Below are positions 8,766 to 51,000 of a DNA stretch of 55,101 nt, one piece after another. How positions within the stretch are numbered: position 1 is the stretch's first letter; each line of letters begins with the position of its first letter. The notes beneath the pieces were generated by a model. That model worked only from the letters and a program-made list of their open reading frames with translations, searched no databases and was not told where the DNA came from. The stretch comes from a virus. Taxonomy: Duplodnaviria; Caudoviricetes. Made by a program: the position numbers and the translations under genes. Location of the stretch: positions 1 to 55,101 of IMG/VR virus record IMGVR_UViG_3300029448_000053. One strand, 5' to 3'.

Positions 8766-10181
8766 TCATATTCCTCCATCATCACTTGGGGCTTCGGATT
8801 CTTCGGGCGGCTTGTTTTCATTTTCACGAGGCAACTCTCCTACATTAGTATCGGAGGTCGGCGCGTTGTATCTACCTTTCCCAATACTGGCCTTTTCAGC
8901 AGGTAGACTTAATTCAAATCGAGCCTCATTTAAAGTAGTAATTCCAGACTCAAATGCCATAGTTGTTCGGCGGGTTTGCTCGAATGGCGATTCCTCATCC
9001 ATTGGTTCAAACATGACCTTTGGTAAGTCCGACTTAATATGGGCAATACCAAGCAGTTCTAAGTGCTTTGAAAAGAGAGCATTCATAGATTGAGCGAGAA
9101 TAGATTGTAGACGGCGAATTGCTTGGACCGACCATTGACTCGCATTGTATGTAGCGGCAAAAGTAGAACCACGTTCCTGTCCCATAGAAACTCTTGGGAC
9201 ATGGAGAACTGATGAGATGTCAGCATTGACTGAATCTAAAAAGCCGGAGTTATCGGGCACTGTATTCTTGAGGTCAACAAACTCCATGTTCACATAGTGA
9301 GGGAGGATAGGCACTTGGTCGGAGCGGAGGCCGTCAAGTAGACTGCCTACTGAATCCATAACATAGTTAAGGCGAGCCTCGGCTTCGTCGGGGTCATTGA
9401 TATTCTCAACTGCTTCGGGGCCAATAGTAATGTATTGTTTAGTGAGTGAGTCTTCGAGAGCAATGCGGTTATTCATACTGTTGTATTTTGCACGGATGGC
9501 TTGTTTGAGAGCGGTAAAGCGAGATGCTCCCCATACGCCATAGGTCCATCGACCCAACCGGTCTCTAAACCAGTTGGAGCGGTAATCAATACGGATGTGT
9601 AGGATTTCCTTTGCTGGGTATGATTGAGTGTCCCTCGCTTGTTCTCGCAACAAATACTTCTCCGCTTTCATAATAGCGTTTTCTTTATCGGTCTGTGTAG
9701 AGCCGGTTCGACTATCCATAATTGTTATTTGCGCGATAGGCAGGGATTGTAATTCAGTAACACCGACTCCGGTTTTACCGACATACTTTGAGATGTCGTT
9801 GCCGTAGACCATGAGGTTTCGCATACCGTTAATGAGTAGGTCATCAAAGTCAAGTGTCTCTTCTACCAATGTTTTGATAGCGTTTCGTATAGCGGCATTT
9901 TTACCGCCGATAACTTGATACTTGTTTGCTGTGAGGCTGATAGTTCGGACTGCCCCATTAAGTTCGGGGTCGTAATTTAGCATGTCGTCGTATAGGTCGA
10001 ACTCATTTGTATGGTCGAAAGAGCCTCGCAGTCCCTCGGTATTCTTTACAATTTCATCAATACCAGCGGCCATCACTGTAAAGGGACTATCCCCCTTACG
10101 ACTCGCAGTAGTATATACTGGGACTTTAGTCTGTTGCTCTGCCGAAACAGTCCGAGAAGAAAATGGATTCCACCATGCCAT
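8766..10181 (-). CDS. Portal protein
   Basis: 471 aa downstream of TerL; LMVYGN, EILHIR, ISSVLHVP, GITTLNEARFEL motifs. Confidence 0.85.
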   Translation of the reverse strand: MAWWNPFSSRTVSAEQQTKVPVYTTASRKGDSPFTVMAAGIDEIVKNTEGLRGSFDHTNEFDLYDDMLNYDPELNGAVRTISLTANKYQVIGGKNAAIRNAIKTLVEETLDFDDLLINGMRNLMVYGNDISKYVGKTGVGVTELQSLPIAQITIMDSRTGSTQTDKENAIMKAEKYLLREQARDTQSYPAKEILHIRIDYRSNWFRDRLGRWTYGVWGASRFTALKQAIRAKYNSMNNRIALEDSLTKQYITIGPEAVENINDPDEAEARLNYVMDSVGSLLDGLRSDQVPILPHYVNMEFVDLKNTVPDNSGFLDSVNADISSVLHVPRVSMGQERGSTFAATYNASQWSVQAIRRLQSILAQSMNALFSKHLELLGIAHIKSDLPKVMFEPMDEESPFEQTRRTTMAFESGITTLNEARFELSLPAEKASIGKGRYNAPTSDTNVGELPRENENKPPEESEAPSDDGGI

Positions 10182-10213
10182 GCTTTACGCACATATCATA
10201 TGTTATTTGAACA

Positions 10214-10342
10214 TCACTCATCCGACATGCTGTTTTTCTTTCTTTTTCTTTTATATATTAAGTAGCCTACTGTTAACCAAAACAGACATTCTATGATGAT
10301 AAGACCATATAGTGCAAAGAAAGGGTGGAGCATAGGACTCAT
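10214..10342 (-). CDS. Small single-TM protein, 42 aa
   Basis: MSPMLHPFFALYGLIIIECLFWLTVGYLIYKRKRKK: TM followed by a basic stop-transfer segment. Confidence 0.5.
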   Translation of the reverse strand: MSPMLHPFFALYGLIIIECLFWLTVGYLIYKRKRKKNSMSDE

Positions 10343-10373
10343 GTTTGGTATTTTTTGGTGTGAGCCTTTAACA

Positions 10374-11891
10374 TTACGCTCCAAAGCGCACATATTTTCC
10401 ACCGGAACTTCGATTCCGGCTTGGTTTCGTAGGTTTTTTGCCTTTCGACCACCCACCCATGCTTGTCGTTTTAGTTGCCATAGGCATAAAGTCGGAACGC
10501 TTTGGTTTGAATTGGTCTATTGCGTGCGCAAAAGCCATAACTGTATCGTTATGTTTGCCCACATCTATAATCTCACCATTTTTCCATACGTGGTTTTCGA
10601 GTTCGTCAAGAAGTATGCCAATTTTTTTCCGCATATCGGCGGTAGCATACGGGAAAACGATAAGTTCTCGCTCAAACCATACCCTTAACCGGTTCATTAG
10701 CCCCTGTTTAAGTCCTTTATTCGACACTTTAGATGGTCTATAATCAACCATGCCTCCTTTTTGCTCTATGATTGTTTGATACAGTCTTTGAAAACCTACA
10801 TCCTCAGCGGCCACTGCCGCCTTAAAGTGTTTAGCCCATTCGATTATAATATCAGCCTGTCTATCCGGCGCAAAATCATTACGCCTCCACATATCAACAA
10901 AGTGGACATAGCCGTCAGCATCCTGTCGCAACGATATTAAAACGGAGTAGTCTTTACCAATACCATGAGAAGGGTCGAAGCCGAGGATGAAGACGGAACT
11001 ATTGTCGAATTGACTATCGAATCCTCCGTCGGCACTTATGTCTATGTTTTTTCGGATGAGGTGCCTATTGAATACTTGGGCATCATCATCAACGACCTTA
11101 CACAGATACTCTTGAGAGAAGGCGAGGTCGTCATCCATGCTGATTTTTTGTTCCAAGAGAAAAGCGGTGGGTCGGAACTTGGGCCAAAGTGGTGTTAACT
11201 CTACTTCGGGATTAACTCGGTGCTCATCCCAATTGGGGAATGCCGACCATACACCACTTTTCCATACTTGTTTAGCCTTCTCGGATAACATCTCGGTTTG
11301 ATAAAGGTCAGTGTGGGACATTGGCGTGCCGACACAGAACAGTGATGTTTCGGGGTCGAGCATTGGAGTAACTACTTTCTTGAACCACTCTCGCACCGAG
11401 TCCATAGTCATATCCCCCATTTCAGCGAGGACATCATCAAGTGCTACTACGGCAGGGTGCTCTCCACGGATAGCGGAACCTACACCGGTTGCTTGAATCC
11501 AAGCACCGTTGGTAAATTGTATTTTTTGCTTGTTTGATTTACGTTCATTGAGATACTTTCGTAGTTCGGGGTGTCGGCGCATATCAGTCTTAATCTCCTC
11601 AAGACGGTTTGTTGCTTGGCGAATAGATGCGGAAAATAACCACACCTCCATAGGGTTGCCGTTGCGTTCTTCAAACAAACACATGTGAAGTAATTTAACA
11701 CGTAGTGTTGCTGATTTGCTGTGTGAGCGGGGAGCGATAATACAGACACGATGAACTGCCGCGCCTTTACGGTCGCCGTATAATTCCATCCATTCGCCTA
11801 TGTGGTCGGCCCATTCGTATTCGGGGGATAACCATTCATAAAAGTGGCGGATGTCATACTTGGAGCGTTGAAAGTCAAAGTTGGTTATCAT
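10374..11891 (-). CDS. terL: Terminase large subunit
   Basis: Walker A APRSHSKS, Walker B VVALDD, coupling motif VGTP, nuclease LGFDP...DYS and HNDTVMAFA. Confidence 0.93.
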   Translation of the reverse strand: MITNFDFQRSKYDIRHFYEWLSPEYEWADHIGEWMELYGDRKGAAVHRVCIIAPRSHSKSATLRVKLLHMCLFEERNGNPMEVWLFSASIRQATNRLEEIKTDMRRHPELRKYLNERKSNKQKIQFTNGAWIQATGVGSAIRGEHPAVVALDDVLAEMGDMTMDSVREWFKKVVTPMLDPETSLFCVGTPMSHTDLYQTEMLSEKAKQVWKSGVWSAFPNWDEHRVNPEVELTPLWPKFRPTAFLLEQKISMDDDLAFSQEYLCKVVDDDAQVFNRHLIRKNIDISADGGFDSQFDNSSVFILGFDPSHGIGKDYSVLISLRQDADGYVHFVDMWRRNDFAPDRQADIIIEWAKHFKAAVAAEDVGFQRLYQTIIEQKGGMVDYRPSKVSNKGLKQGLMNRLRVWFERELIVFPYATADMRKKIGILLDELENHVWKNGEIIDVGKHNDTVMAFAHAIDQFKPKRSDFMPMATKTTSMGGWSKGKKPTKPSRNRSSGGKYVRFGA

Positions 11892-14200: not shown

Positions 14201-14273
14201 TATAGTCTTATCAGTCTTTACTTAGGAGGAAAATGCGTGGGAGAGAGATTCGTAGGGAGAGAGATTCTCAAAC
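14201..14273 (+). repeat. Tripartite ~72-bp element, copy A
   Basis: TATAGTCTTA-N29-GGAGAGAGATT...CAAAC. Confidence 0.6.
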
Positions 14274-14346
14274 CTACAAAACCCCAATCGAATATGCCAC
14301 CACCACCGACGGATTGAAGGGCCGTCGCCCTATCTGTGCTACCTAC

Positions 14347-14930: not shown

Positions 14931-15113
14931 TCACTCAAAAGAGGGTAGGTTTCCGTTCCGGTCTTGTTGTCGGTCAAGGTAGACCTGCAACACATCGTCA
15001 AAGAGAGAGGGGCGTTCCATCATGGACATATCCCTTACCCGTGTGTCTTCCAACAAGCAAATAATGTTCCTCAACCTGCGTATTTCATTCATCAGTTCTT
15101 CGTTTGTTTTCAT
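14931..15113 (-). CDS. Hypothetical small protein (MKTNEELMNE...)
   Basis: GGAGG SD; TTTATATAT box near 15200-15208 on the minus strand. Confidence 0.55.
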   Translation of the reverse strand: MKTNEELMNEIRRLRNIICLLEDTRVRDMSMMERPSLFDDVLQVYLDRQQDRNGNLPSFE

Positions 15114-15347
15114 GTTTTTTCCTCCATTGTTTTTACGGTTCGCCTGTTTTCTGTTCTTGTCCACTGACTTTCCCGTATGTGCATACTAACACCTATATCA
15201 TATATAAACGGTTCCCGAATAATGCTCATACCTATTGTTGAGTGGATGGGGGGTTGCCCCACGCACGGCCCCGCCGCCGGTATAAGACTGTTAATAGAAA
15301 ACGCGCTTGGGGAGAGATACTCGGCGTTTAGCCTCTGTAATATACTA

Positions 15348-15420
15348 TATAGTCTTAGGAAGGAACCGTGAACGGGAGGGGGCTTGGGAGAGAGATTTTG
15401 ACTTCTCCAAAAGTCCAAAC
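15348..15420 (+). repeat. Tripartite ~72-bp element, copy B
   Basis: TATAGTCTTA-N29-GGAGAGAGATTTT...AAAAGTCCAAAC. Confidence 0.7.
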
Positions 15421-15784
15421 TTTTCATGCTGTCGGCTCATGGTCTGTCGAATGTGTCCGAGGTTATGAACCCTTTGTTTTCTTGCTTTTTTGGCTGGAAT
15501 TGAACTTTTTTCTGTTTTTTTTTCTGTCTGTTTTTTTCTGTTTTTCTTTCGGTCTTGAATCGTTGCCCCTGATGTCCTAAACGGGGCACTGCGAGACCGG
15601 TGGCCCCTCCGCTCTCAAATGTGCCTTTTTTGGGCTGTTTTGGGCTTTGTCCGGCCAATGACAGGCCGACGATTTAGGGCACCCTAAATCTCTTTTTTTG
15701 TCTTCTATTCGATGGACTGCGAGCCTGTTTTTTGCAGAATGCCACTTGGATAAGTTGATATACTTGAGCGGGAATCGGTAATTG

Positions 15785-16925
15785 CTTCTCCAACCGGAGG
15801 GAGCCGAAGTGAATAATTTGCCCCACACTCATTCCCGATAGTTTAGGGATTCAATGAACGGGGAGTTTCGGAGGGTCATTAAAGTGGCCGTCGAAGAACC
15901 AAGAACAATACAGCGAACACATCATGTTCCCTTCAAAAACTGAAAACATCCAGAAAAAGGAGGGATTGCGTAGCCGTGCACTGCCTCTCTTGAGAGGTGG
16001 GGTAACGGACTCTTGAAGCCGGCTTTTGAGACACCCTCTCAAATATATTCAACGGCATGGGCGTGAGTCATAGGACAAACACGAACATTTGATAGACGGG
16101 TCGGGAACACCTTGACCCTCATGGGAGTTGCCTTCGACAGAAGAGGCACTGAAAGCATGAATTAGTGGATGGTTGAGAAGCATCACTTCTCGACAGGGGC
16201 GACCCGACTCCATCCAATAATCACCGCTTACAACTCTATGACAGTGGACTTAAAACCCCACTTGAGAGCATATATGACAAACAAGACCGCAATGAACTTA
16301 TGGGAACATATATCCGAAAGGAGGCTGTTTAAAGGTGTGCGCATCAGATTCGGGTGTTTCCCGACTGATGACACTATTTAGTAGCGAATTATTGAATTAC
16401 CGATGTAACCGGCGACGGGTGCATCAAACCATTAGATTTTGAGTCTCCACAGGCGGAGGTTCGCATATACCCACCGTGGTTATGCCTTACAGGAACTTTA
16501 TTTTTCAAGACGGCGTGGCTATGCGGTAGCAATACCGGCGGAGTGTCTATGATGCGAGGGAGGCGTGAACTTTTTTGAATAGGTGAGTCGGTCCGGTTGT
16601 ATAGCCGGCTCACTGAATTATCACGGCTCGGATTCATGCTCCAACATACACTACAATACACGGACATGATGAAAGGCAATCCTCCCGAATAATCTTCTAA
16701 TCCTGTGAAAAACGGCGCTTGAGGTGCTCCGCCAATGACGGCCCCAATCACAGTCCTCGCCCACATACGGGCAGAGCGTGGGATTATCTACGGCCTAAAC
16801 CGGACCACGCAGTATGAAAATGGAGCGGAGACTCTACCGCTACCGAACTCTCTCCCTCAAAGAAAGAGAGTGCTTGAAAGAGAGCAAAGAAAAGAGAGGC
16901 GCGACTTGTAGGCAAAGAGTCAAAA
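15785..16925 (+). ncRNA. Candidate large structured non-coding RNA (~1.1 kb), family unassigned
   Basis: No credible ORF; TTGATATA box at 15755-15762; many local hairpins with G-U pairs and GNRA loops plus nested long-range helices; ends approximate. Confidence 0.65.
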
Positions 16926-16944
16926 AAAACGGAGGAAAAAACAA

Positions 16945-19644
16945 ATGTATGAAAATGCAATGAACACAGATAGTGGTTTAGGCATGATTTTTGCTATGCT
17001 ATGGGTATTCCTACTCATGGGCGCAGTAATGACGGCCTTCATCACCCAACGATTAGAAGAAACAATGCGAATGCGTGTTGGACTCGAAATAGAAGTTCTA
17101 CGGAACGACCATACCGAGAATGCACCCAACCACTCAATTGCGACTTGGCTTGACATGAAAGCGGCCGCCGAAGGCGACGCCTACAATCAAGCGTATGAAA
17201 AGACACGAAAGAAGCGTGTCAGCATGTATCGAAAGACTCGTGCGAAGCGGCGAGAGGCAATACATAAAGCCCTGCCCCATTCATACTACAATAGACGTTT
17301 TAGAGTTCGTGATGAGTCGTGGTCTCAAGGCCGCACTGCACCACATACCAAAGTCATACCCGATGGTTCACTATCGAGTGGTGGCTTTGAAGTCGTGTCG
17401 CACCCTTTAACAGATGGTGCACATCATGGTTGGATTGCCACACTTGGTAGACTACTACGACACATAACTCGTATTGACCGCTCATGTGGGCTTCATGTCC
17501 ACATTGGCCTAAGAGACCCCGACGCTAATTTTGGCGACGGCGGTCAACTTACAATGACCGATGCAAAATCAATTGCTGGTCGAGTTGCTTGGGCCTATGC
17601 TTACTTCACCGATGCTTTCAACCAGATTGTATCACCGAGTAGACACTCCGGTCAATACTGCCAACGGTCCTACCATATGCTTCGGACTCACCCGAACCCA
17701 ACAAACCACACTACACGCCGACGAGACACTCATGTGATGGATAACCCATCACAGGAAGCCTACATACTTGATGGGACACATGAATACGAACAACTGTATG
17801 ACAATGACCCAAGTGAAGGATATGTAATCTACCGAGTTGAAAAACTTGAAGGGCAGACCTTGTGGCATAAAATGTATGACAACGCACGGAGTCATGGTCG
17901 TTATTACCATCTCAATGTGTGCAGTCTCCTTGACAGGCCCTTTGGCACTGTCGAGTTCCGTCAACATCAAGGAACATCAAACCCAGTGAAAATGAGTAAC
18001 TGGGTCGACTTATGCTATGAGTTTGTATTGCGGTGCGCCAGTGTCGAAAACTTTAATGGAATACAGGCATACTCACAGGACCTCAAAGGACTGTGGGCAT
18101 TCCTTGACTATGCGGAGGATGACCCAGTGGTTGACTATTATACCAAGCGTGCATATGTTCTAAATGGAGGCAACTTCATACGGGACTGCGACAATTGCGG
18201 TAGTAATACCTGTGTGCATTACGAGTGTGTAACAAAACTTGACAGCGACATTTCCGATGACGCCAAAAGATTCTTTGCCAACTCTCGTGATTGGTCTTGT
18301 TATGACTGCGGTAGTAGTAATTACCTTAGTGAGATTAACACTGAATATGAAACTGCTCACTGTGAATACTGCGACAATGAAGTGTCAATACACTGTTCCG
18401 GTGCAATTGCATCACTCGCCCTCGGCCTCTTTGTAGCCGCACCACTCGTGGGTGCAGTTGCACTGGTAGTCGGATGCGGTATAGGTGCAATCCATGTTGG
18501 TGCCAAGAAGTTCCAATCAAAGAAGAACTTCAAGCGTTTGTTCAATGACCTCGCAGTGCGTGGTGGACAAGCGTCTGGTTTTGCGTGGCAAAAGTCCAAA
18601 GGTGGCGAGACATCCGAACTGTGGTATATCAAATCGCCCACTCCCTCGACTCATCTCAAGAAGCGTGTCGATGACCTTGTAAAAGGCGACACTATTTGGA
18701 TAATGGGACATACTCGATTTGCCACACACGGTGAAAACAATTCCGACAATGCACACCCGCACTGGAGTCCAGACGGACACATAACACTTATTCACAACGG
18801 TGTTGTAGGTAATTATGACAAGGTGTGGAAAACCCTCGGCCTCAAACCGACGGGTCCAGTAGACAGCCAAGCAGTTGCCGCCGCTCTCGAAGTTGGTGGT
18901 ATCGAAAAGGTTGTTGAACTGTGCGTGGGCAATATGTCATTGATTTGGTCGGACAACCGAGACCCGAAAGGGACACTCAAGTTCTGGACAAACGGTGGCA
19001 ACCCACTATGTGCTGGTAGACTACATCATCCAAACAAAGGTCCACTCGTCATAGCATCGACATTACCAATCCTCAAGCAGTCTCAAAAGGGCTTGAAAAC
19101 ACACTGGTCGTGCACTATCGGAACTGAATACACAGTTCACCCCGATGGTTCAATCGAAAAGCGTGATATTGAAGGAAGTGAGGATAGTGTCGGTGTTGGC
19201 ATGTATAACTGGCGAACATATGCGAGCCTATACGGTGGTAAGTCAAAGTCCAACAAGACTCGGACTATTACAGTCAACGCACCAACGGGTAAAGCCGATG
19301 GTGTGGCTGATAATTGCACACTACCCGATGTATCGGACAGTTACGAATACGATGACATGGTGCTCAACGATGTTCTAAATGACGTGTGGGCACAGATGAG
19401 CATAGATGGTTGGATTCCAATTGACGAATACCACGGTTACGACACACAGACACATGTTGGCGTGCGGCCCGATGGAACATCCTACAAACTACCAAATTAC
19501 TACGGTGGTAAGGCTATGGACCCAGTTATGGACACAGACCAAATGGTAATGGTATTGCGTGGCGAGTTTGACCCACGCACTACGACCAAAGGATTCAATG
19601 AAGTAGAATCCTACTGGAATGACGTGCAGGAATACTACAACTAA
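16945..19644 (+). CDS. Fusion: TM + amidoligase (COOH-NH2 ligase) + Zn ribbons + TM + class II glutamine amidotransferase
   Basis: VGLEIEV, DGSL...GFEVVS, SCGLHVHIG, RYYHLN, TVEFRQHQGT (amidoligase); CGIG, RGGQASG, GHTRFATHG, NAHPH, HNGVVGNY, VDSQ (GATase II); GGAGG SD. Confidence 0.85.
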   Translation: MYENAMNTDSGLGMIFAMLWVFLLMGAVMTAFITQRLEETMRMRVGLEIEVLRNDHTENAPNHSIATWLDMKAAAEGDAYNQAYEKTRKKRVSMYRKTRAKRREAIHKALPHSYYNRRFRVRDESWSQGRTAPHTKVIPDGSLSSGGFEVVSHPLTDGAHHGWIATLGRLLRHITRIDRSCGLHVHIGLRDPDANFGDGGQLTMTDAKSIAGRVAWAYAYFTDAFNQIVSPSRHSGQYCQRSYHMLRTHPNPTNHTTRRRDTHVMDNPSQEAYILDGTHEYEQLYDNDPSEGYVIYRVEKLEGQTLWHKMYDNARSHGRYYHLNVCSLLDRPFGTVEFRQHQGTSNPVKMSNWVDLCYEFVLRCASVENFNGIQAYSQDLKGLWAFLDYAEDDPVVDYYTKRAYVLNGGNFIRDCDNCGSNTCVHYECVTKLDSDISDDAKRFFANSRDWSCYDCGSSNYLSEINTEYETAHCEYCDNEVSIHCSGAIASLALGLFVAAPLVGAVALVVGCGIGAIHVGAKKFQSKKNFKRLFNDLAVRGGQASGFAWQKSKGGETSELWYIKSPTPSTHLKKRVDDLVKGDTIWIMGHTRFATHGENNSDNAHPHWSPDGHITLIHNGVVGNYDKVWKTLGLKPTGPVDSQAVAAALEVGGIEKVVELCVGNMSLIWSDNRDPKGTLKFWTNGGNPLCAGRLHHPNKGPLVIASTLPILKQSQKGLKTHWSCTIGTEYTVHPDGSIEKRDIEGSEDSVGVGMYNWRTYASLYGGKSKSNKTRTITVNAPTGKADGVADNCTLPDVSDSYEYDDMVLNDVLNDVWAQMSIDGWIPIDEYHGYDTQTHVGVRPDGTSYKLPNYYGGKAMDPVMDTDQMVMVLRGEFDPRTTTKGFNEVESYWNDVQEYYN

Positions 19645-19659
19645 GCATTGTTTCTTTAA

Positions 19660-19833
19660 TCGACCGATGTCCTTAGTGTAATACACACTGAGGTTCCTTA
19701 ACCGATGGTTGAGGTTGCCGCCAATCTTGGGGCTTCGGCCCCTTGAGAGGCCCCCGCTGGCGAGCGGTTTACAAATACGCATTCACATTCCAGCCTTCGG
19801 GCATTCCTATTCCCTCACAGGGAGGTATAACAA
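19660..19833 (+). other. Repeated structured leader, unit 1
   Basis: TTAACCGATGGTTGAGG, GGGGC-TTCG-GCCCC hairpin, CGCTGGCGAGCG, TACAAATACGC, CACAGGGAGGTATAACAAATG. Confidence 0.55.
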
Positions 19834-19935
19834 ATGATGACTGCAAATGAAATTGAAGATGCAATAATCGCTGAACAAGTGGCTATTGATACTGCAAACA
19901 AAGAAGCATGGGCATTGGCTATTAGTCAATGCTAA
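19834..19935 (+). CDS. Mini-ORF, 33 aa (MMTANEIEDAIIAEQVAIDTANKEAWALAISQC)
   Basis: Strong GGAGGT SD; not in the track. Confidence 0.6.
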   Translation: MMTANEIEDAIIAEQVAIDTANKEAWALAISQC

Positions 19936-19954
19936 GTAATTGTAATACAATTAC

Positions 19955-20079
19955 TACTGTTAAACCGATGACTTGGCATACTCCAAGACGGCTGAGGAGC
20001 CACCCCAAATAGATGCGACCGTCGTGGGCGCTATACAAATACACGCATATTCCCCCACAGGAAAGGAGGTAAAACAAAC
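19955..20079 (+). other. Repeated structured leader, unit 2
   Basis: TTAAACCGATG...GACGGCTGAGGAGCCACCC...ATGCG...GCGCTATACAAATACACGC...CACAGGAAAGGAGGTAAAACAAAC. Confidence 0.55.
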
Positions 20080-20415
20080 ATGGATAAATACAAGCAACAA
20101 ATTATGCAACTGTATGCTACGCTACTGCGTGCACACATAGCATTACTTGATGAGATATTGGATGCGGCTACAAGTAAAGCCGCACGCCGATGTGCAACCA
20201 AAGCCAGTGAGCAAATCTGCTCAACTGTGTATCATTTGATACATGACACTGGTGTTATGCCCAACAGCCACATGATACCATATATCGACGACTTGGCCCC
20301 AACAGCCGACGACTTCGATTTCGGTCTCATGCACTCTGTTCGGGATATGGAGAAGCAAGTGTTCCCGTCGACAGTCGGCGGTCGCACTGGCTTCGGCCTA
20401 TACCCAAGCAACTGA
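20080..20415 (+). CDS. Hypothetical protein, 111 aa
   Basis: GGAGGT SD within the shared leader. Confidence 0.65.
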   Translation: MDKYKQQIMQLYATLLRAHIALLDEILDAATSKAARRCATKASEQICSTVYHLIHDTGVMPNSHMIPYIDDLAPTADDFDFGLMHSVRDMEKQVFPSTVGGRTGFGLYPSN

Positions 20416-20565
20416 TGTCTCATTAGTAATCCAGTATATCGGTAGGCCGTAGATAACTCGGCACTACTGTTCCCGAAAGGGTAGCCGCACTGCCCCTCGC
20501 TTCGGCGGGGGGTGGTGCCCAACACCTCCTCTCACATCACACTCCACACAGGAGGTATAACAAAA

Positions 20566-20676
20566 ATGGAAAATGAATGGGAATGCGGTTGCATTCAAAC
20601 AGGAACAAATTGGATTCTGTGCAAAGACTGTAAGGCGGCGCGTGAGCACCCTCTTGCATGTGCTTGTTGCCAGTAA
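20566..20676 (+). CDS. Cys-rich mini-ORF, 36 aa (MENEWECGCIQTGTNWILCKDCKAAREHPLACACCQ)
   Basis: CACAGGAGGTATAACAAAAATG leader; 7 Cys; not in the track. Confidence 0.6.
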   Translation: MENEWECGCIQTGTNWILCKDCKAAREHPLACACCQ

Positions 20677-20715
20677 GCATAATCCAAATGCCAAGCCAAA
20701 AATACCAAATGGATG

Positions 20716-20822
20716 ACGGGCATTTTAACCCGACGGTTGAGGAACCACCCACATAAATGCGCTGGCGAGCGCCATATAAATACGCTTCATTTTTTTTATC
20801 ACAGGTAGAGGATGACAAACAG
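20716..20822 (+). other. Repeated structured leader, unit 4 (no intact ORF follows)
   Basis: TTAACCCGACGGTTGAGGAACCACCC...ATGCGCTGGCGAGCGCCATATAAATACGC...CACAGG. Confidence 0.55.
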
Positions 20823-20892
20823 ATAGTCAGTAGACTATGCTCCCCGTCGTGGGGGATGGATGGGCATGACTGGAGATGCTCTCTCTCTCTCT

Positions 20893-20963
20893 TATAGTCT
20901 TAAGACTTAAGACTATACCACATGCGCTAAGGAGAGCGATTTTTGGCGGCGAAAAATCCAAAC
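20893..20963 (+). repeat. Tripartite ~72-bp element, copy C
   Basis: TATAGTCTTA-N28-GGAGAGCGATTTTT...AAAAATCCAAAC. Confidence 0.7.
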
Positions 20964-21023
20964 ATTCGCACACGCACACACACATGCGTCATACACTGCT
21001 AAAACCGAGGCTCTCTACGCACA

Positions 21024-21095
21024 TATAGTCTTAAGACTAATCCCCCCACCATACACGTATTAGGAGAGCGGTTTTTCACCTAAAAAAATCCAAAT
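21024..21095 (+). repeat. Tripartite ~72-bp element, copy D
   Basis: TATAGTCTTA-N29-GGAGAGCGGTTTTT...AAAAATCCAAAT. Confidence 0.7.
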
Positions 21096-21457
21096 CAAAA
21101 TGCTTATGAGGCACACACACATGCACATATGTGCGTATATACGGTGCCGAATCCCTACGAAAAAGCCCCTAAACAGGCGAAAAAGCGAACATATGTGCGG
21201 AATCAGGCGCAAAACACCGGCAAAACGCCGAAAAACGAGGCACTTGTATCTGTGTGGGTAGGCTCACACGCTACATGCGAGTATTTCGATTACGCCAAAA
21301 ACCAAACATGTTATAATGCGTATGTGCTGGAACTCTCTACTTTCGCACCCGTTCCGCATACACATCCATACATGACGCATATATCTACGCTTACGCATAG
21401 GGCCAGCAAACAGTGGAGCAGTGGTCTCTTTAAGTATCGAATGTAGGGGGAGAATCC

Positions 21458-21474
21458 TAATATACCGGCGGCCT
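21458..21474 (+). promoter_or_regulatory. TATA-type promoter opening the early gene run
   Basis: TAATATACCGGCGGCC ~30 nt before ATG 21489; related motifs at 23033, 25081, 26071, 27635 and 29092. Confidence 0.55.
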
Positions 21475-21488
21475 CACATTTCACTTTG

Positions 21489-21896
21489 ATGGCAACCGAA
21501 ACGGAAACCAACGAAGCGAGAGGCTCACTGAGTCTCGATAACCTACAAGACGGCACCTATTGGTTGGCCGACGGCATTTTACGCCGGTCTGGGGCGACCA
21601 AAGGATATTGGGTAGCCTCGCATAGAGGCACAGACGCCCTGCTTGACCGAGAATTAACGCTGTATCACCCCGCCGTAACTGGAGCGACTGTAAAGGCCAT
21701 GCTTGAAGCCCCTCGAATCCTTAACCAAAGCCGCACATTTTATGTGGGTGTTTGGACTGATAAATCCGGCAACCAACATCTCGACTACGCATACCATGTG
21801 GATAAGTATAACGAGGCTATGTCAATCGCAAAATACAGAAAGCAACTCGCATTTTGGGATATTGGCATGGGTCGTGAAGTGGTGGTGAACCAATGA
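21489..21896 (+). CDS. Hypothetical early protein
   Basis: 135 aa, apparently leaderless; YVGVW...HLD...QLAFWD segment. Confidence 0.7.
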   Translation: MATETETNEARGSLSLDNLQDGTYWLADGILRRSGATKGYWVASHRGTDALLDRELTLYHPAVTGATVKAMLEAPRILNQSRTFYVGVWTDKSGNQHLDYAYHVDKYNEAMSIAKYRKQLAFWDIGMGREVVVNQ

Positions 21897-27904: not shown

Positions 27905-28212
27905 AAAAATATAGTGAATACTTAAACGAGCAATATACCCCGCTTACACGGGATGAAGTAATGAAATTACAGAAGACAGTGAACAACTACTTGGGTCAAA
28001 TGGACCCGAACTGTGAGGCCCAAGACGAGTTACGGCGGATGACTGTTAATCTCAATGTGGCCTTAAGTGAGGTCGCATTCCTACGAGAACAATTGGCGGT
28101 TGCCTACCAATACATAGGGCGACGAGCACCCAACCCAGCACCGACCAAGTATCGTGAGGTCATGCACCATGCGACACGGATTCGGGGCGAGGAACGGGGG
28201 GTGAGCCAATGA
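27901..28212 (+). CDS. Hypothetical protein (MKKYSEY...)
   Basis: GGAGG SD and ATGA overlap; the track's longer 5' extension overlaps the previous gene. Confidence 0.6.
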   Translation: MKKYSEYLNEQYTPLTRDEVMKLQKTVNNYLGQMDPNCEAQDELRRMTVNLNVALSEVAFLREQLAVAYQYIGRRAPNPAPTKYREVMHHATRIRGEERGVSQ

Positions 28213-28943
28213 ACATATTCGCATTATCAACCGACCCCATAAGAGCGGCGCAAATGGTGTGCGACAGACACGCCAGTAAAATGTGCGTCGAGACTGCACA
28301 GATGATGGCTTCGGCCCTGCTTCGCAACGGATTCGAGTCGGAGGACATGCCGCTTACAAGTAAGGGCACACCTTACAAGGGTGGCTACAAGCACCATCCC
28401 TGCACAGTATGGGCTGGCGATAACTGGGCTAATTTTCTATGGCTCGCTCAACATGGGCTGGCACTATGTGATGAGTTCAAAATGCGATACGGCGAAGGGC
28501 GAGTAGAACATGCTTGTCGTAAGCCTATCAATAAAATGCTCAACATGGCCGTGAACCGTAAAGACACAGGCATATACTATCACATGCGAGGCATAACTAC
28601 TACTGGCCCCTTTGGGCATTTGTTAAATCAAGAATGGCCGAAGAAGACTGCCTTCGCTATGGCTATGCCCGACGAGTTCAAGCGTGATGATGGCAAAGAG
28701 GTGCTCGCATACCGAGAATACTACAAGTCAAAGGTGTTCAAGGATGGCTCCCGCCCTACATGGGCAAAGGGGCGAAGTGCACCCGAATGGTGGGAACTTA
28801 GAGTTGGATTTCAACGAATGATGGAGAACCTCACCGAAGGACTTGACGGACTCGTTGCGCAAACCGCCGAAGCGATAGACACGGCACGGGCACGGCGGGC
28901 TTTGGGTTACACATATGTTGGAGGTGATTGGGAAAATGAATAA
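28209..28943 (+). CDS. Pyrimidine-dimer DNA glycosylase (DenV/endonuclease V)-like family protein
   Basis: MNIF...DRHASKMCVETAQMM, HPCTVW, ALCDEFKMRYG...HAC, AMPDEFK, AYREYY motifs. Confidence 0.75.
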   Translation: MNIFALSTDPIRAAQMVCDRHASKMCVETAQMMASALLRNGFESEDMPLTSKGTPYKGGYKHHPCTVWAGDNWANFLWLAQHGLALCDEFKMRYGEGRVEHACRKPINKMLNMAVNRKDTGIYYHMRGITTTGPFGHLLNQEWPKKTAFAMAMPDEFKRDDGKEVLAYREYYKSKVFKDGSRPTWAKGRSAPEWWELRVGFQRMMENLTEGLDGLVAQTAEAIDTARARRALGYTYVGGDWENE

Positions 28944-29136
28944 TAATGCTGGATATGCCGAATACCACGAGATTACACAGGCTCTCACTACAACGACAGA
29001 CATAGCCCTCGATGCGATAAAAATTATCCGTATGCTTGGGCATGATGAACTCGCAAACACATTAACAAAGAGGCTATTGATAGCACAGAAAAATATATAT
29101 GGGGGCAACCCCCCAATACAAAATGGAGGCAACTGA
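28936..29136 (+). CDS. Hypothetical protein (MNNNAGYAEYHE...)
   Basis: GGAGGTGA SD. Confidence 0.55.
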   Translation: MNNNAGYAEYHEITQALTTTTDIALDAIKIIRMLGHDELANTLTKRLLIAQKNIYGGNPPIQNGGN

Positions 29137-29138
29137 AA

Positions 29139-29351
29139 ATGAATATAGAACTTTTAGAAGCGGCGAAGGACTTACTACGGTGGGTTTTGATTAAGAACGA
29201 AGGAACGCTACCACTACCCTTATTGGATGCACAGCATGTCATTATGGAGGAACAGCGAGAACAGGACCTTGAGGACCTGCGACATAGCGAGAGGGCGAGT
29301 TTTCACTCGAACCTCATGTATGTCCTATACGGAGATGAACCACATGAGTAA
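29139..29351 (+). CDS. Hypothetical protein
   Basis: GGAGG SD; TATA-like motif at 29092. Confidence 0.55.
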   Translation: MNIELLEAAKDLLRWVLIKNEGTLPLPLLDAQHVIMEEQREQDLEDLRHSERASFHSNLMYVLYGDEPHE

Positions 29352-29553
29352 TGCTGGATATGCCGAATACCACGAGACAACGGTGCACGCAGTCCTTGAC
29401 GAATACATGACGAAGGAGGCCGCAATAGAGGCACTCATGGAATACTTTCGCAAAGCGGATAAGCATGTCGTTATGGAGGAATTGGCCGAGTGGGTGTATG
29501 CCGACGAAGAATGTAGCATAGTAGACCTTCGGGGGTGGATTAAGTATGAATGA
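29344..29553 (+). CDS. Hypothetical acidic protein (MSNAGYAEYHE...)
   Basis: GGAG SD; shares a 29-nt 5' segment with the gene at 28936. Confidence 0.55.
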   Translation: MSNAGYAEYHETTVHAVLDEYMTKEAAIEALMEYFRKADKHVVMEELAEWVYADEECSIVDLRGWIKYE

Positions 29554-35388: not shown

Positions 35389-36057
35389 ATGGGCGTAGTA
35401 ATTTTTACCAAAGACGATGAGCGATACCGAACTGGGAATTACTTCGCTATGTATGGCGAACTCACAGTCTCCCCAAGCCTACCACACACTACTTACATTC
35501 TACACATTAACAAGTTCACTGAAAAGGATGCGCTCTATTGGGCAAAAATAGTTCCCTTTAGACTTGTTGTAGTCTCCGATAAAATGCCTAAATTAACAAA
35601 GGCGAGTGAAGAATGTGTCATCCTCGACCAATCAATCAAGACCAGTAAGCCGGACTTCTCTCGCAAAATGAGAGCCGCCTTATGCTGGGCCGACCGAGAC
35701 CGTGCACACACCGCTCTCGGACCTATCCCTCTCCCCTTAGCCAACGCATTCATCAAGGTTAATGTTCACGACATCAACCTCGGTCGCCTCTTGGCTCGAT
35801 GTCGCTATACCCTGCATGACAATTACACTCGTGCCGCTATTGCATACGGCATCAGTCCTATTCGCAATTTTAAATGGCCTTCTAAGAAGGCCAGTAATGA
35901 CTATATAGTGCCGAAAGGTATTAGACAAACAGACAAGCACATAAGCACTATCATAAATAATGATGTGATAGTAGCCAATGAGTTGCGTATCAATGATACC
36001 GCCGCTCTACCTGCTCGTCTAAACAAAACAAAACAGGATGTAATACAATGGGTATGA
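35389..36057 (+). CDS. Hypothetical protein, 222 aa
   Basis: Long ORF in the operon. Confidence 0.65.
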   Translation: MGVVIFTKDDERYRTGNYFAMYGELTVSPSLPHTTYILHINKFTEKDALYWAKIVPFRLVVVSDKMPKLTKASEECVILDQSIKTSKPDFSRKMRAALCWADRDRAHTALGPIPLPLANAFIKVNVHDINLGRLLARCRYTLHDNYTRAAIAYGISPIRNFKWPSKKASNDYIVPKGIRQTDKHISTIINNDVIVANELRINDTAALPARLNKTKQDVIQWV

Positions 36058-36422
36058 TGATGAAACAAAAAGCAATAGATACGGTGTTTGTTTATGGAAC
36101 ACTAAAACAAGGATATACGAACCACTATTTTCTTGAAGACTCCCTTTACTTGGGGGAGTTCAAGACTAATCCTAAGTGGGGCTTATTAGATTTAGGTTTA
36201 TTCCCTGCTATGGTTGTAGGGTCCTTAGAAGTAGAAGGTGAGGCGTATGGTGTCAGTGAGGAAACTCTCGACCGACTCGACCGACTCGAAGGCGTAGAAC
36301 AAGGACTCTACCGACGAAAAAGAATCAGTGTCAACGACAGTCTCGGCAACAGTATCAGTGCTTGGGCATACATTTACAATGCCATTCCTCATAACGAAAC
36401 AACATTATTAGCGGAGTGGTGA
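36048..36422 (+). CDS. Gamma-glutamylcyclotransferase (GGCT/AIG2-like)
   Basis: VFVYGTLKQG, FPAM, VEGEAY, LDRLEG...LYRR, AWAYIY. Confidence 0.9.
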   Translation: MGMMMKQKAIDTVFVYGTLKQGYTNHYFLEDSLYLGEFKTNPKWGLLDLGLFPAMVVGSLEVEGEAYGVSEETLDRLDRLEGVEQGLYRRKRISVNDSLGNSISAWAYIYNAIPHNETTLLAEW

Positions 36423-37088: not shown

Positions 37089-37991
37089 ATGAGACAAGTA
37101 TGGGCTACCAAGCATCGACCTTCTACTCTCGATGATTTTGTCGGACAGGAACACATGATAGATGAGTTCCGCCGTATTGTTTCCGACAACAATGGTATGC
37201 AACACTACATTTTTTATTCTCCCGAAGCGGGAACAGGCAAAACCTCTCTCGCTCATATACTGGCTAATCAACTTGGCTACACCATTCACATGTATAATGC
37301 GTCGTCTAAAAGACAGCGTGGTATTGATTTCATTGAAGACGAGATAGGGCCGATGGCTCGGCTCGGTCAATGGGAAACAATTTTCTTTTTAGATGAAGCC
37401 GACCAACTTACTGATGCGGCACAGTCGGCACTGAAAGGTGTTATCGAAGGTGCTCAAGGCTACTTCATCCTCACCTGCAACGACTTGACTAAGTTATCGC
37501 CGTGGCTACAATCTCGGTGTCAAGTAAGAACCTTTGAACCCATAGGTGATAGCGAGATGTTTTACCGACTGCACCAAGTAGACGGTAGAGAGGGATTCTT
37601 TACAAACAACGATGACCTTGACAAAATCATAGGTGCCAACAAAGGCGACTTACGAAACGCTATCAATACCCTTCAAGCATACCACACTATGCCGGAGGAG
37701 ACCCGACAACAATTTTTACTCTCAATATCCGAACCCGAAGTCGACGTGCCTAAAATCCTCTCGCTTTGTATCAAAGAGAAGCAGGTAGAAGAGGCAGTGA
37801 AGTGCATGGGCACTCCGGCCAACCTGCGAAAGACAATAGACGCCGTGTTCAATTACGGCATAAACTCCCCCGCTAAACCCGAAAGCAAATTGCTCTTGGT
37901 GGATGCCGCTACACAGGCCCAAAGGGACTTGTTGAGTGGTGTCGAGGCCCACTATGTTATGTGGGACTTTTGCCGGAGACTGGCTGAATAG
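37089..37991 (+). CDS. rfcS: Replication factor C small subunit (clamp loader)
   Basis: WATKHRPSTLDDFVGQ, GTGKTS, NASS, LDEADQLT.AAQSAL, LQSRC, GDLRNAINTLQ. Confidence 0.92.
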   Translation: MRQVWATKHRPSTLDDFVGQEHMIDEFRRIVSDNNGMQHYIFYSPEAGTGKTSLAHILANQLGYTIHMYNASSKRQRGIDFIEDEIGPMARLGQWETIFFLDEADQLTDAAQSALKGVIEGAQGYFILTCNDLTKLSPWLQSRCQVRTFEPIGDSEMFYRLHQVDGREGFFTNNDDLDKIIGANKGDLRNAINTLQAYHTMPEETRQQFLLSISEPEVDVPKILSLCIKEKQVEEAVKCMGTPANLRKTIDAVFNYGINSPAKPESKLLLVDAATQAQRDLLSGVEAHYVMWDFCRRLAE

Positions 37992-48033: not shown

Positions 48034-51000
48034 TTACTCCGAATAACTGAACGAGTTCGATTGCGATTTACCTGCTACTGAGCGGTTATCGGTAGCAATC
48101 TGTATGTTATGTAACTCGACCGAGGCGTGAGATGCGTTGTCATCACCTTGACCTGCGTTCCGCTCTACTGTTACCTTGATAGTATTGTTTGATACATTAG
48201 CACCGAGCACACTACCACTAAACAAAACGACATTACCACGTTCAATTTGTTCTACCGTTACAGTGTTGGTGTGTGTTGCACCAGTCTCTACACATTCAAC
48301 GCTCACCAGTAGAACTGCACTGCCGGAGGCGGCACCCATACTGGCTCTACCAAATACTCTAATGCTGTTCGATTGAGCGTTGGGTGGGATTCGAGCAGTA
48401 GCAGTGAAGGATGTAGGGGGCGAGACCCAATCTCCGGCACCAGCAAAGACCATACCGTCTTCACCCATGATTGCATCTCCCGATGTAGGGGAGATAAACG
48501 AGTCAATGCCGGATATACCGTTGCCATCTCTCGGAGCCGCCGCCGGTTTTGTTTGACCGAGGACTCCGAATGAACCACCGGTAACACTGTCATTGTTAAA
48601 GTCCATAGTTCCCTTGACACGATTAAGGGTAGTATTGCCTAATGCCGATGACGATAGGGTATGCACTCCGGTTATTGAAGTGCTTAGTCCGTCGGGTCGA
48701 GAGATACGATTTGGATTTGTAATTGGATTGAGTTGAGAACTGCTTGTTTGAGCAGGGCCACCGTCGCCCCAACCACCCCAGTCCTGCCATCCTCCGCCTT
48801 GAGGATTACCTGCGTTATCGCCACCTCGACCACCAGTAGTGCTACCTCCCGATGGAGGAGTCTGTGGTGCTACACTATCACCGCCGCCACCAGTATTACC
48901 TTGACCGGATGACTGAACGCCGCCTCGTGCTACCTTTGGTAGAATATATGAGGTGAAGTTCTTTGCCGCTCTCGACACATCTCTTTCAAGTCCTATTGAT
49001 AGACTCTCACTGTTTCGGCCGTCAATAGACCAATTGATATTACGAATACTTAATTTTTCACTACTCAATCCCATTTGAGCGTCAGTGTATGTCAACGTAG
49101 TTGCTGGCACGAAGTTCCAATCATCGACAATGTGGAGGCGAGGAGCATACCATTCAGCATTCTTGTTCCAGTAATCAGCCTGTCCGAACTTACGAACACC
49201 GAGAGGGAAAATACTATCGGTATTAAATCCAGCAGTGTATGTAACTCCAGCCCAATTATGTGCATTTAGATGAGTGTTGCTACCGCCGCAACGGTTGCGT
49301 AGGAGAGAGGTCAAGTAATCGTAGTTCACTGAAATAACCATTTTTTCATTACCTACTTGGTCGCTCCAATAAGTAGAAGGAATGCCTATCTCATAGAAAC
49401 CATTCGATGAAACGGTAATTGAACTACTGCTTCTTAAGGTGCCGTCAAATCCACCAGTGTTTAAGACGGCCCAATCGTAATCCAATAAGTATATTCGGAA
49501 CAAAGCGAGGTTCGGGTCTTGAAATGCGCCCCATCTGTCGTCAATATCAATTGCTATTCTCAAGTGTCCGTCGGCATTATTCTTTGTTGGGATTCCGCCG
49601 GCTGGTGTTTTCATTGTAGTCTTTGGCATGCCTTGAGGAACATGGACTACCTGCATAGCGTAGGACAGTGAATTAGCACCATACCAATAATAATTTGCCG
49701 AGTATGCGAGAGTGCCCTGCTCGTCAGTATTACTTGGAGTAGCACCATCTCGACCATCAAGTGCATTTTGAATACCACTAAACAAGTTGCCACCCCAAAG
49801 AGAAGCCCAAGCCCATGCTTTATCATCAGTATAGGACCCTGCTAAAGTGCATGTTCGGGGGATTGTTCGAGATTGGTCGGCTACATATCCGTAGCGAGCG
49901 TTGTATAGCATGGTATCGTTGAGTCCGTTGAGAGTATGACTATCGCTGAATCGAATAATCTCGGCTGTAACTGCAAATGGTGCGGCCTTGTTCTTCTCAT
50001 ACTCTTGTTTCGCTACAATCAGTGCTTCATTTTTTGATTGCACCGAATCCACATGAATGATGTCCCAACGAGGGCGAGTTCCAAGCGTAGCCGCCGGATA
50101 ATCAACGAATGATGTTCCGCCGTTGTAGAATAGGCGAACATTGGAGATTTGCCCACCGGATTCGGTATTCAAGTTGGAGACTTTTAGGTTGGTAGTGTTA
50201 AACACGAAACCGTTGCCGTATGTAGGTCGGAATGACGGCTGTGAGTCTCGACCCATGAGCCAAGACATAACCGAGCGAGTTCCGTCAGTGTGTCCTATGC
50301 CACTACCGCTTTGAGTAGAAGAGAATATGTTGGCAATAGTAGTGTTGCGGCAATCATTAACGGAGCCGAATGTATCTACCGACCCTACCTTACGCCAATA
50401 ACCTGCATTGGCTGTCGCACTTTTACCTGCGGCAGTTACTCTAAAGTTATACGGACCACTCCCCCCAACATCGGAGACAACATATCTCGTCTTGTAGTTA
50501 TCAGCCGCGAGGCTTAGTTGAGAATTGTTGACAATTTCAACAATATCACCATTAGCGAGGTTTCCGTCGAGCCGCTCCCCTGCGATATTACCGAGAACTA
50601 TTACTGTTCCGTCGCCTTGAGTGTGGCTTGAGGTTGCGATAATCGAGTTTGTTCCACCAGTCGAAGCGTCGTTTTGAGTATTAGTCATGTTGCCCATCAC
50701 AGGAATAGATGCGAGAGAAGGTATTCCGTAGAGAGATGCTTGGGTCAACCAATTCTGTGTGAGTGAGTCGAGCCATGTAACACGGAACTTGTCGCTTTCA
50801 TTGAAGGTGAGGCTCGCTTCATTCTCAATGAAGCCGTCAACCTGCATCATCAAGCGCATAGGGAATACATTAGCGAGGCCGACATGCACTGTCGCATCCT
50901 CGTAAGCATTTGTTGCGTCTTCATCAATAGGGATGTCAATAAAGGTATGTGCTGAAAACGGCGAGCCTCCGTCTTGAACTAAATACTCAGCGTCATTGAT

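Follow-up and report, generated by a model that had tools for sequence, protein, structure and literature searches.

An uncultured marine tailed phage, represented by the IMG/VR virus record IMGVR_UViG_3300029448_000053, carries between positions 15348 and 21095 a row of co-oriented elements that, on balance, we read as one conserved rightward transcription unit: a large structured non-coding RNA, a putatively self-processing fusion of an amidoligase with a glutaminase, and swappable small-gene cassettes. The whole 55.1-kb record (55,101 nt; completeness estimate 85%), called the window here, was compared with 21 viral loci having the full fusion and with 80 metagenome loci, and the layout recurs in relatives with ligase identity of only 32–58%. 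The RNA is the notable part of the locus, as a large phage RNA with a fixed protein-gene neighbour. An initial annotation, made from the letters of the window, had listed repeats, the ligase fusion, three short open reading frames (ORFs) and a distant gamma-glutamyl cyclotransferase (GGCT) gene, all of which we found where it had placed them (Table 1), and had suggested that the ligase acts on the short peptides. Its observation is confirmed; its interpretation is partly supported, that is, half right.

The stretch that precedes the ligase gene (15165–16944) is non-coding, as judged from the codon periodicity of substitutions and from indel lengths in four clades. Three-base periodicity was seen in 0 of 16 upstream blocks of 300 nt (P 0.1–1.0) versus 16 of 16 ligase blocks (P 1e-2 to 3e-7), and 35 of 46, 51 of 63, 63 of 75 and 39 of 50 upstream indels were not multiples of three. 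The length of the ORF-free gap was rejected as a measure; it is uninformative, as chance ORFs of at least 100 aa arise inside the RNA region.

Substitutions in the 3′ part of this stretch preserve base pairing, which bears out the suggestion that a structured RNA lies beside the ligase. Pairs were predicted from one reference sequence and scored in relatives, with two blocks of ligase coding sequence as controls; the P values that follow are approximate, since sequences inside a clade are related. Pair survival was about twice that of the controls in two clades, namely the near trio (changed pairs kept: RNA 0.44 vs coding 0.24, P 3e-8; two-sided changes kept/broken 49/25 vs 60/114) and the 40% clade (0.47 vs 0.26, P 2.6e-8; 41/16 vs 45/66). 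A weaker excess was found in two others, c52 (0.33 vs 0.25, P 0.013; 55/34 vs 18/44) and c37 (0.43 vs 0.35, P 0.04; 40/21 vs 23/42). In the two strongest clades, pairs survived better when folded as the plus strand than as the minus strand (0.44 vs 0.34 and 0.47 vs 0.36). The boundaries of the RNA are approximate: 15925–16570 is the aligned block, and 15945–16915 is the block tested against the coding controls.

Consensus folding gave numbers in the same direction. For the window aligned with the two nearest relatives, at a mean column identity of 79%, the consensus had 167 pairs, 34 of them compensatory as compared with 12.8 ± 2.8 in shuffles, and for a second clade of six sequences it had 282 pairs, 37 of them compensatory (13.4 ± 2.6 in shuffles). 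However, the same pipeline run on ligase coding blocks also yields 9–43 "compensatory" pairs per block, so counts derived from a consensus prove little alone. Two further observations weigh with this one against a structured RNA. Sliding thermodynamic z-scores do not tell the RNA region from coding sequence, and three of seven clades were without the structure signal (c50, 0.29 vs 0.30; c34 and c40b, at or below coding), although in two of these three the upstream region is shorter or the alignment highly divergent.

Parts of the RNA are modular. In the closest relative of the window (L002) a 49-nt insertion forms a hairpin of its own, and a sibling contig (L081), whose ligase is 100% identical to that of the window, carries at L081:38–128 a 76-nt module that the window lacks. 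Across clades, no other block of the upstream RNA is as well conserved as this module. It folds into a three-way junction of 22 pairs, 9 of them compensatory, and its closing helix P1 exists in four different versions with the same geometry. Both indels are domain-sized and closed by helices. In profile searches the near clade and the 40% clade were linked solely via the 76-nt block, and two further RNA blocks were common to members of the near clade. When run against 74 sources, a covariance model of the module recovered its 12 training sequences and no others, and the window gave no match; a pattern search of viral contigs located the module in 3 of them, each a known ligase carrier.

These observations bear on whether the 1.7-kb ORF-free stretch might serve mainly for control at the DNA level, as a replication origin, divergent promoters or protein-binding boxes, with any RNA structure incidental. 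The stretch does lie at the switch between gene directions, leftward as far as ∼15.16 kb and rightward starting at 16.9 kb, and its 5′ 500 nt look like DNA sites: they hold two copies of ACTGCGAG, the pair AAATGTGC.TTTTTGGGCTGTTTTGG and a T-rich tract (15470–15560), with conserved boxes and direct repeats, and RNAalifold found no common fold in these ∼500 nt (7 invariant pairs, −2.1 kcal/mol). The perfect palindromes of repeats C and D, described below, are likewise typical of dimeric DNA-binding sites. The 3′ 1 kb behaves differently, as its paired positions co-change at about twice the rate of the coding controls, the strand asymmetry depends on G-U pairs and favours the plus strand, and the 76-nt module keeps one geometry with four different P1 helices. 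We therefore regard a mainly DNA-level role as quite unlikely, and consider the stretch to be a new large structured RNA that likely represents a new family of large phage RNAs. No Rfam 15 covariance model, those of GOLLD, ROOL, OLE, group I/II introns and RNase P included, matched the window or four relatives at gathering score; at E ≤ 10 or E ≤ 5 only chance-level matches appeared. A search of the window for tRNA and tmRNA found none, and a search of the accessible literature found no prior description of the RNA. In the part of an IMG/VR RNA survey that concerns candidate sizes, only those of 29–151 nt are given (PMC10690425), and its supplementary tables might list fragments.

How the RNA relates to the ligase transcript is less certain. 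It most likely lies on that transcript because it is on the same strand, reaches the ligase ribosome-binding site, and is followed by no plus-strand terminator-like site before the ligase ATG; we lean toward an RNA that is cis-acting or co-transcribed with the ligase. It may instead act in trans as an independent ornate RNA, like GOLLD and ROOL, with its own promoter and end, whose adjacency to the ligase merely reflects a shared early rightward arm. At ∼1 kb and with dozens of helices it is far above the size of known cis-regulators, its helix-closed domains are gained and lost among relatives, and a terminator-like hairpin (15671–15690, followed by a T run) and an AT-rich conserved box (together 15671–15770) stand upstream of the structured part. 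In addition, a partial copy of the leader boxes found farther downstream lies between RNA and ligase (16711–16740), and this counts against a single unit, since the RNA would be a separate transcript if that copy were a promoter. The missing terminator argues the other way, as do the lack of any match above chance to an Rfam large-RNA model even at E ≤ 10 and an RNA-ligase adjacency that is kept in clades down to ∼37% ligase identity. A trans-acting RNA is thus a possible but clearly less probable explanation.

GOLLD and ROOL are presented, in the portion of a preprint that introduces them, as large ornate RNAs of phages and prophages (bioRxiv 10.1101/2024.12.08.627333). The window RNA resembles them as a large, many-helix non-coding RNA in a phage genome; it differs in having no Rfam match of its own and in lying just 5′ of a protein gene, not next to tRNAs.

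The ligase gene encodes two enzymatic domains in one polypeptide. Amidoligase_2 (PF12224) matched residues 43–360 (nt 17071–18024) with 40.9 bits against a cut-off of 22, covering profile positions 3–244 of 245, and phrog_2443 ("amidoligase enzyme") matched at 1.5e-14. The Pfam family GATase_6 matched residues 585–692 with 54.8 bits against a cut-off of 27, and the glutaminase domain of GlmS (1xff) matched at 2.9e-15. From the N-terminus, the order is a hydrophobic helix, the amidoligase domain, a Cys-rich linker (residues 415–476, nt 18187–18372) with four conserved Cys pairs, a second hydrophobic helix, the glutaminase and a C-terminal extension of ∼130 aa. Columns E48, E50, H184, H186, R339 and H341 of the amidoligase domain are invariant among 21 aligned members. 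The second helix ends in an invariant VGCGIGAIH, whose Cys511 (nt 18475–18477) is the same in 21 of 21 sequences and begins the class II glutamine amidotransferase (GATase), residues 511 to ∼771. Besides the invariant G-C-G-I-G...H, the 21 members share HTR.ATHG, HNG and a conserved Asp (D640), which we take to be the GlmS-type catalytic set.

A "polyprotein" organisation had been proposed for this gene, and the alignments agree with it. The matches to three stand-alone phage GATase profiles begin at residue 511, which corresponds to profile position 2, and residue 2 of human GFAT aligns with the Cys511 site (position 503 of the A1 alignment profile). Class II glutaminases require their catalytic Cys as a free N-terminus. 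Because the nucleophile Cys511 is internal, a cut between Gly510 and Cys511 would be required, and the fusion most likely cleaves itself there. Glutamine-dependent amidation is typically the work of a glutaminase together with a carboxylate-amine ligase, and the most likely activity of the fusion is the amidation of a membrane-proximal carboxylate using glutamine; as the protein has two membrane helices, its target probably lies at the membrane or envelope. A point that weakens this functional prediction is that the amidoligase domain is without a solved relative by sequence.

The third enzyme expected in such a set, a GGCT (Pfam GGACT), is encoded 16 kb from the ligase, outside the unit, and is present in five of five near-complete relatives, as the initial annotation had anticipated for the window. 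Iyer et al. are said to have predicted in 2009 that phage COOH-NH2 ligases associate with class II GATases and GGCT, and the co-occurrence of GGACT, ligase and GATase fits that three-gene association. The passages of two later papers that cite the prediction still give the function as unknown (PMC10580990, PMC11706807). The window shares with this set the same two Pfam families and a GGACT in the same genome. It departs from it in that both enzymes form a single polypeptide, which has two hydrophobic helices, a Cys-rich linker and a nucleophile Cys in its interior, and in the 1-kb structured RNA that precedes the gene. In a phage collection, cultured phages had separate GATase genes only, at no more than 34% identity over no more than 28% of the query. 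In a large protein collection, the fusion matched 118 clusters at E ≤ 0.001; both Pfam domains are present in most, several are fragments or GATase domains alone, and many of the clusters with the fusion sit on 56–63-kb contigs from ocean samples.

Other enzymes combine the same activities. In asparagine synthetase B (AsnB), a glutaminase is paired with an ATP-dependent enzyme that activates a carboxylate. MurT/GatD, according to the section of PMC3267633 that describes it, acts on lipid II. The fusion is like both in joining a glutaminase to an ATP-dependent carboxylate activator, and its membrane-proximal setting resembles that of MurT/GatD; the ligase fold is Amidoligase_2, unlike a Mur ligase or the AsnB synthetase, and the function here is a predicted one.

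The unit is bracketed by repeats, as had been noted, and the bracket recurs in other genomes. Exact plus-strand copies of TATAGTCTTA occur at 14201 (element A), 15348 (B), 20893 (C) and 21024 (D), with a palindromic partner on the minus strand at 20908; with one mismatch allowed, the scan gave 7 matches versus 2.98 ± 1.88 in shuffles. Copies reach ∼75 nt and share a second box, GGAGAG(A/C)G(A/G)TTTT...AAAA.(T/C)CCAA. The boxes of element B are near-invariant in 18 distinct relatives; in the repeats generally, boxes are much more conserved than the proteins, and the sequence between them varies freely. Among loci with at least 2200 nt upstream of the ligase, the B motif lies 1150–1760 nt upstream of the ligase ATG in 41 of 66 (window included), a position kept across clades with ligase identity from 58% down to 32%. 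A second copy about −2300 from the ligase ATG is also present in relatives, and the C/D doublet lies 768–1596 nt downstream of the ligase stop in 15 of the 19 relatives examined for it. Because these positions recur, the bracket is a conserved trait of the lineage and not a quirk of the window genome. C and D stand where the unit ends and the next one starts. Simple tracts rich in CA/CACG follow repeat C (20960–20990) and repeat D (21105–21130).

We infer that the repeats may be promoter/operator-type signals, element B probably opening the rightward unit. Two findings speak against this: no good sigma-70 −35/−10 pair was found at the repeats, which leaves the promoter reading weak, and element A, which sits between two minus-strand genes, is oriented against its surroundings. 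Archaeal-type TATA/leaderless, T7-like and sigma-54 promoter readings of A–D were also tried, and none fitted well enough.

Downstream of the ligase, the three short ORFs share a leader. GGAGGTAWAACAAA has exactly three copies in the window, each just upstream of one short ORF, and a copy with two mismatches precedes the ligase ATG. The initial annotation had taken this leader as peculiar to the four ORFs, and here it was right in part: a near-identical ribosome-binding stretch precedes the divergent minus-strand 77-aa gene (14931–15164), so the style is not wholly private to them. The ribosome-binding stretches of these two divergent first genes, the 77-aa ORF (15113–15134) and the ligase (16922–16943), are inverted copies, 91% complementary. 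The full leader plan is a box GAYGGYTGAGG, a GC hairpin, a box TAYAAATACRC and a Shine-Dalgarno stretch. Exact pairs of the two boxes number three, confined to 19700–20790, and no sigma-70-spaced hexamers were found at the boxes. Pairs recur in relatives between the ligase and C/D. That the leaders are copies of the 76-nt module was considered as well, and was not supported by a covariance model scan.

The closest relative lacks exactly the 33-aa ORF and one leader copy, and the flanks of the junction match both leader copies. Because this indel is bounded by leader copies and the box pairs recur in relatives, the shared leaders appear to act like recurring regulatory cassettes that flank small genes open to exchange. 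Positions 20046–21887 align with 9884–11723 of the same relative over 1.8 kb at 88.6% identity, compared with ∼68% at the DNA level for the adjoining ligase gene, and this difference suggests that the region of small genes and repeats has been exchanged in mosaic fashion. The promoter/stem-loop (PeSL) cassettes of T4-type phages, as outlined in excerpts of PMC2839356 and PMC4122927, offer a parallel: a repeated intergenic motif (box, GC hairpin, AT-rich box) precedes small ORFs, and an indel is bounded by repeat copies. The sequence is unrelated, the phage lineage is different, and the activity of the window motif is only predicted.

Of the small proteins, the 36-aa one is the best characterized by comparison. 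Its frame was searched in Pfam as part of 20512–20676. In the closest relative it is 100% identical, with all three nucleotide changes at third positions, and it is 89%, 75% and 63% identical in relatives whose ligases are 53%, 37% and 37% identical. C7, C9, C19, C32 and C34 are invariant in five aligned sequences. The ORF forms an island of 65–97% nucleotide identity with flanks at background in three of four relatives, and it is always the final ORF upstream of C/D. By these measures it is a real, conserved Cys-rich micro-protein in its own right. The 33-mer had homologues in 0 of 21 viral relatives and no credible one in 159 loci (best E 0.97); Pfam and PHROGs returned nothing for it or for the 111-aa protein, for which the ESM Atlas gave no usable match either. 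Downstream of the ligase, loci of other clades (L010, L130, L018, L137 and L140) encode small Cys-rich proteins that are unrelated to the 36-mer and have 7 Cys in 40 residues.

It had been proposed that the acidic 33-mer and the Cys-rich 36-mer are substrates or tags of the ligase, in a system resembling pupylation or the ribosomally synthesized and post-translationally modified peptides (RiPPs), with the RNA as control or scaffold. Carboxylate-amine ligases of this superfamily do include protein-tagging enzymes, the genes are co-oriented under a common leader, and the 36-mer is conserved in a fixed place. Synteny separates the components, however. RNA and ligase stay adjacent, whereas the 33-mer is found in no relative, the 36-mer is in 7 loci amounting to 4 distinct relatives (an iterated search added none) while the ligase is in all, and the 111-aa family lies downstream of the ligase in only 25 of 70 loci having at least 1 kb downstream. 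No peptide thus accompanies the ligase consistently across relatives. The three C-termini (SQC, CCQ and PSN) have no Pup- or ubiquitin-type GG(Q/E), and no recognisable leader or core of RiPP type was found in the three small proteins. The GATase, moreover, would point to ammonia transfer over peptide ligation. Co-folding of ligase residues 36–500 with the 36-mer, which scored 0.00 in two runs, spoke neither for nor against the proposal. Ligation or amidation of either peptide is in our view very improbable; the small genes look like interchangeable accessory cargo, and their role as ligase substrates is not supported.

Table 1. Features of the locus, with the gamma-glutamyl cyclotransferase-like gene, in window coordinates
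Feature	Position	Strand	Description
Repeat element A	14201..14290	+	TATAGTCTTA, spacer, GGGAGAGAGATT tandemly doubled, AAAACCCCAA
Repeat element B	15348..15420	+	TATAGTCTTAGGAAG, ∼20-nt variable spacer, CTTGGGAGAGAGATTT, ∼12-nt variable stretch, AAAGTCCAAA
5′ non-coding segment	15421..15900	+	conserved boxes, T-rich tract, terminator-like hairpin
Large structured non-coding RNA (candidate), ∼1 kb	15925..16915	+	structure-preserving substitutions, no codon periodicity, no Rfam match
Insertion site of 76-nt module	16710..16711	+	module in sibling contig L081, absent from the window
899-aa fusion	16945..19644	+	Pfam, 21-member alignment, PHROG and structure-profile matches
Intergenic leader 1	19645..19833	+	box GATGGTTGAGG (19704), GC hairpin, box TACAAATACGC (19770), Shine-Dalgarno 19821–19834
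33-aa acidic ORF	19834..19935	+	orphan, between two leader copies
Intergenic leader 2	19936..20079	+	boxes at 19987 and 20034; Shine-Dalgarno leader at 20065
111-aa protein	20080..20415	+	frequent but not universal ligase neighbour
36-aa Cys-rich micro-protein	20566..20676	+	ATG inside a 54-aa GTG frame; last gene before C/D
Intergenic leader 4	20677..20892	+	boxes at 20732 and 20775, then just a 4-codon frame; leader without a gene
Repeat elements C (20893) and D (21024)	20893..21098	+	each with the perfect palindrome TAGTCTTAAGACTA
GGACT/gamma-glutamyl cyclotransferase-like gene	36048..36422	+	Pfam GGACT, 84.1 bits vs cut-off 22.8

The genome belongs to an uncultured marine tailed-phage lineage with genomes of ∼55–62 kb and a family B DNA polymerase (PolB). 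It encodes a terminase, a portal-like protein and an exonuclease besides the polymerase. A phage collection gave zero DNA matches to the window, and protein similarity to cultured phages is remote only (PolB 24%, the terminase TerL at most 25%, the ligase solely via its GATase part); haloarchaeal viruses, all very distant, are among the best matches of PolB and TerL. Two candidate lineages were rejected as different from that of the window, on the descriptions in excerpts of the papers concerned: the OM43 phage MEP401 group (43 kb, 34% GC, PolA; PMC10580990) and Vyasavirus (PMC11706807). Ocean metagenome contigs (Tara, JGI) carry the candidate RNA/ligase block widely.

Elsewhere in the rightward arm are genes for a clamp-loader-like AAA protein (37089–37991) and a pyrimidine-dimer glycosylase-like protein (28209–28943), and a perfect 29-nt direct repeat (28944–28972 and 29349–29377, spacing 405 nt). 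A further motif, (G)TTATATAGTGGCG, has four plus-strand copies (30243, 37060, 37999 and 44113), two of them 29 nt upstream of a likely ATG (37089 and 44142); these copies are probably a second promoter class, serving replication genes. On the minus strand, a 2245-aa ORF (48034–54771) had zero Pfam or PHROG matches.

Taken as one rightward unit, the locus would work as follows. The promoter/operator-like repeat B would open transcription into a leader of ∼0.5 kb made of sequence boxes and ending in a terminator-like hairpin; the ∼1-kb RNA and then the ligase gene would follow, the RNA being either a very long structured leader of the ligase transcript or a product processed out of it. Two hydrophobic helices would anchor the ligase in the membrane, and a self-cut at Gly510/Cys511 would leave the class II glutaminase with its nucleophile as a free N-terminus; the glutaminase would supply ammonia to the ATP-dependent carboxylate-amine ligase domain. 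That domain may convert a carboxylate of a membrane-proximal target to an amide, or join an amine to it. The variable small-gene cassettes behind the ligase, each with its own leader copy, would be exchanged by recombination between the repeated leaders, and the C/D doublet would close the unit.

A closer partnership can also be imagined, in which the RNA and the membrane-anchored ligase cooperate, the RNA either sensing a metabolite or forming a platform that controls synthesis of the ligase, or else serving as a scaffold or carrier while the enzyme makes or amidates its product. An RNA carrier would have an analogue in tRNA, on which GatCAB amidates. We think such a partnership unlikely; if true, abundant marine phages would widely share a new RNA-dependent system of amidation. 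There are few large structured non-coding RNAs, and every class added so far has led to new biology; a candidate of ∼1 kb tied by position to one enzyme gene offers a direct experimental handle. The trio of amidoligase, GATase and GGCT has been an unexplained "auxiliary" phage gene set since 2009, and its fused, membrane-anchored and probably self-cleaving form leaves fewer places in which to look for its target.

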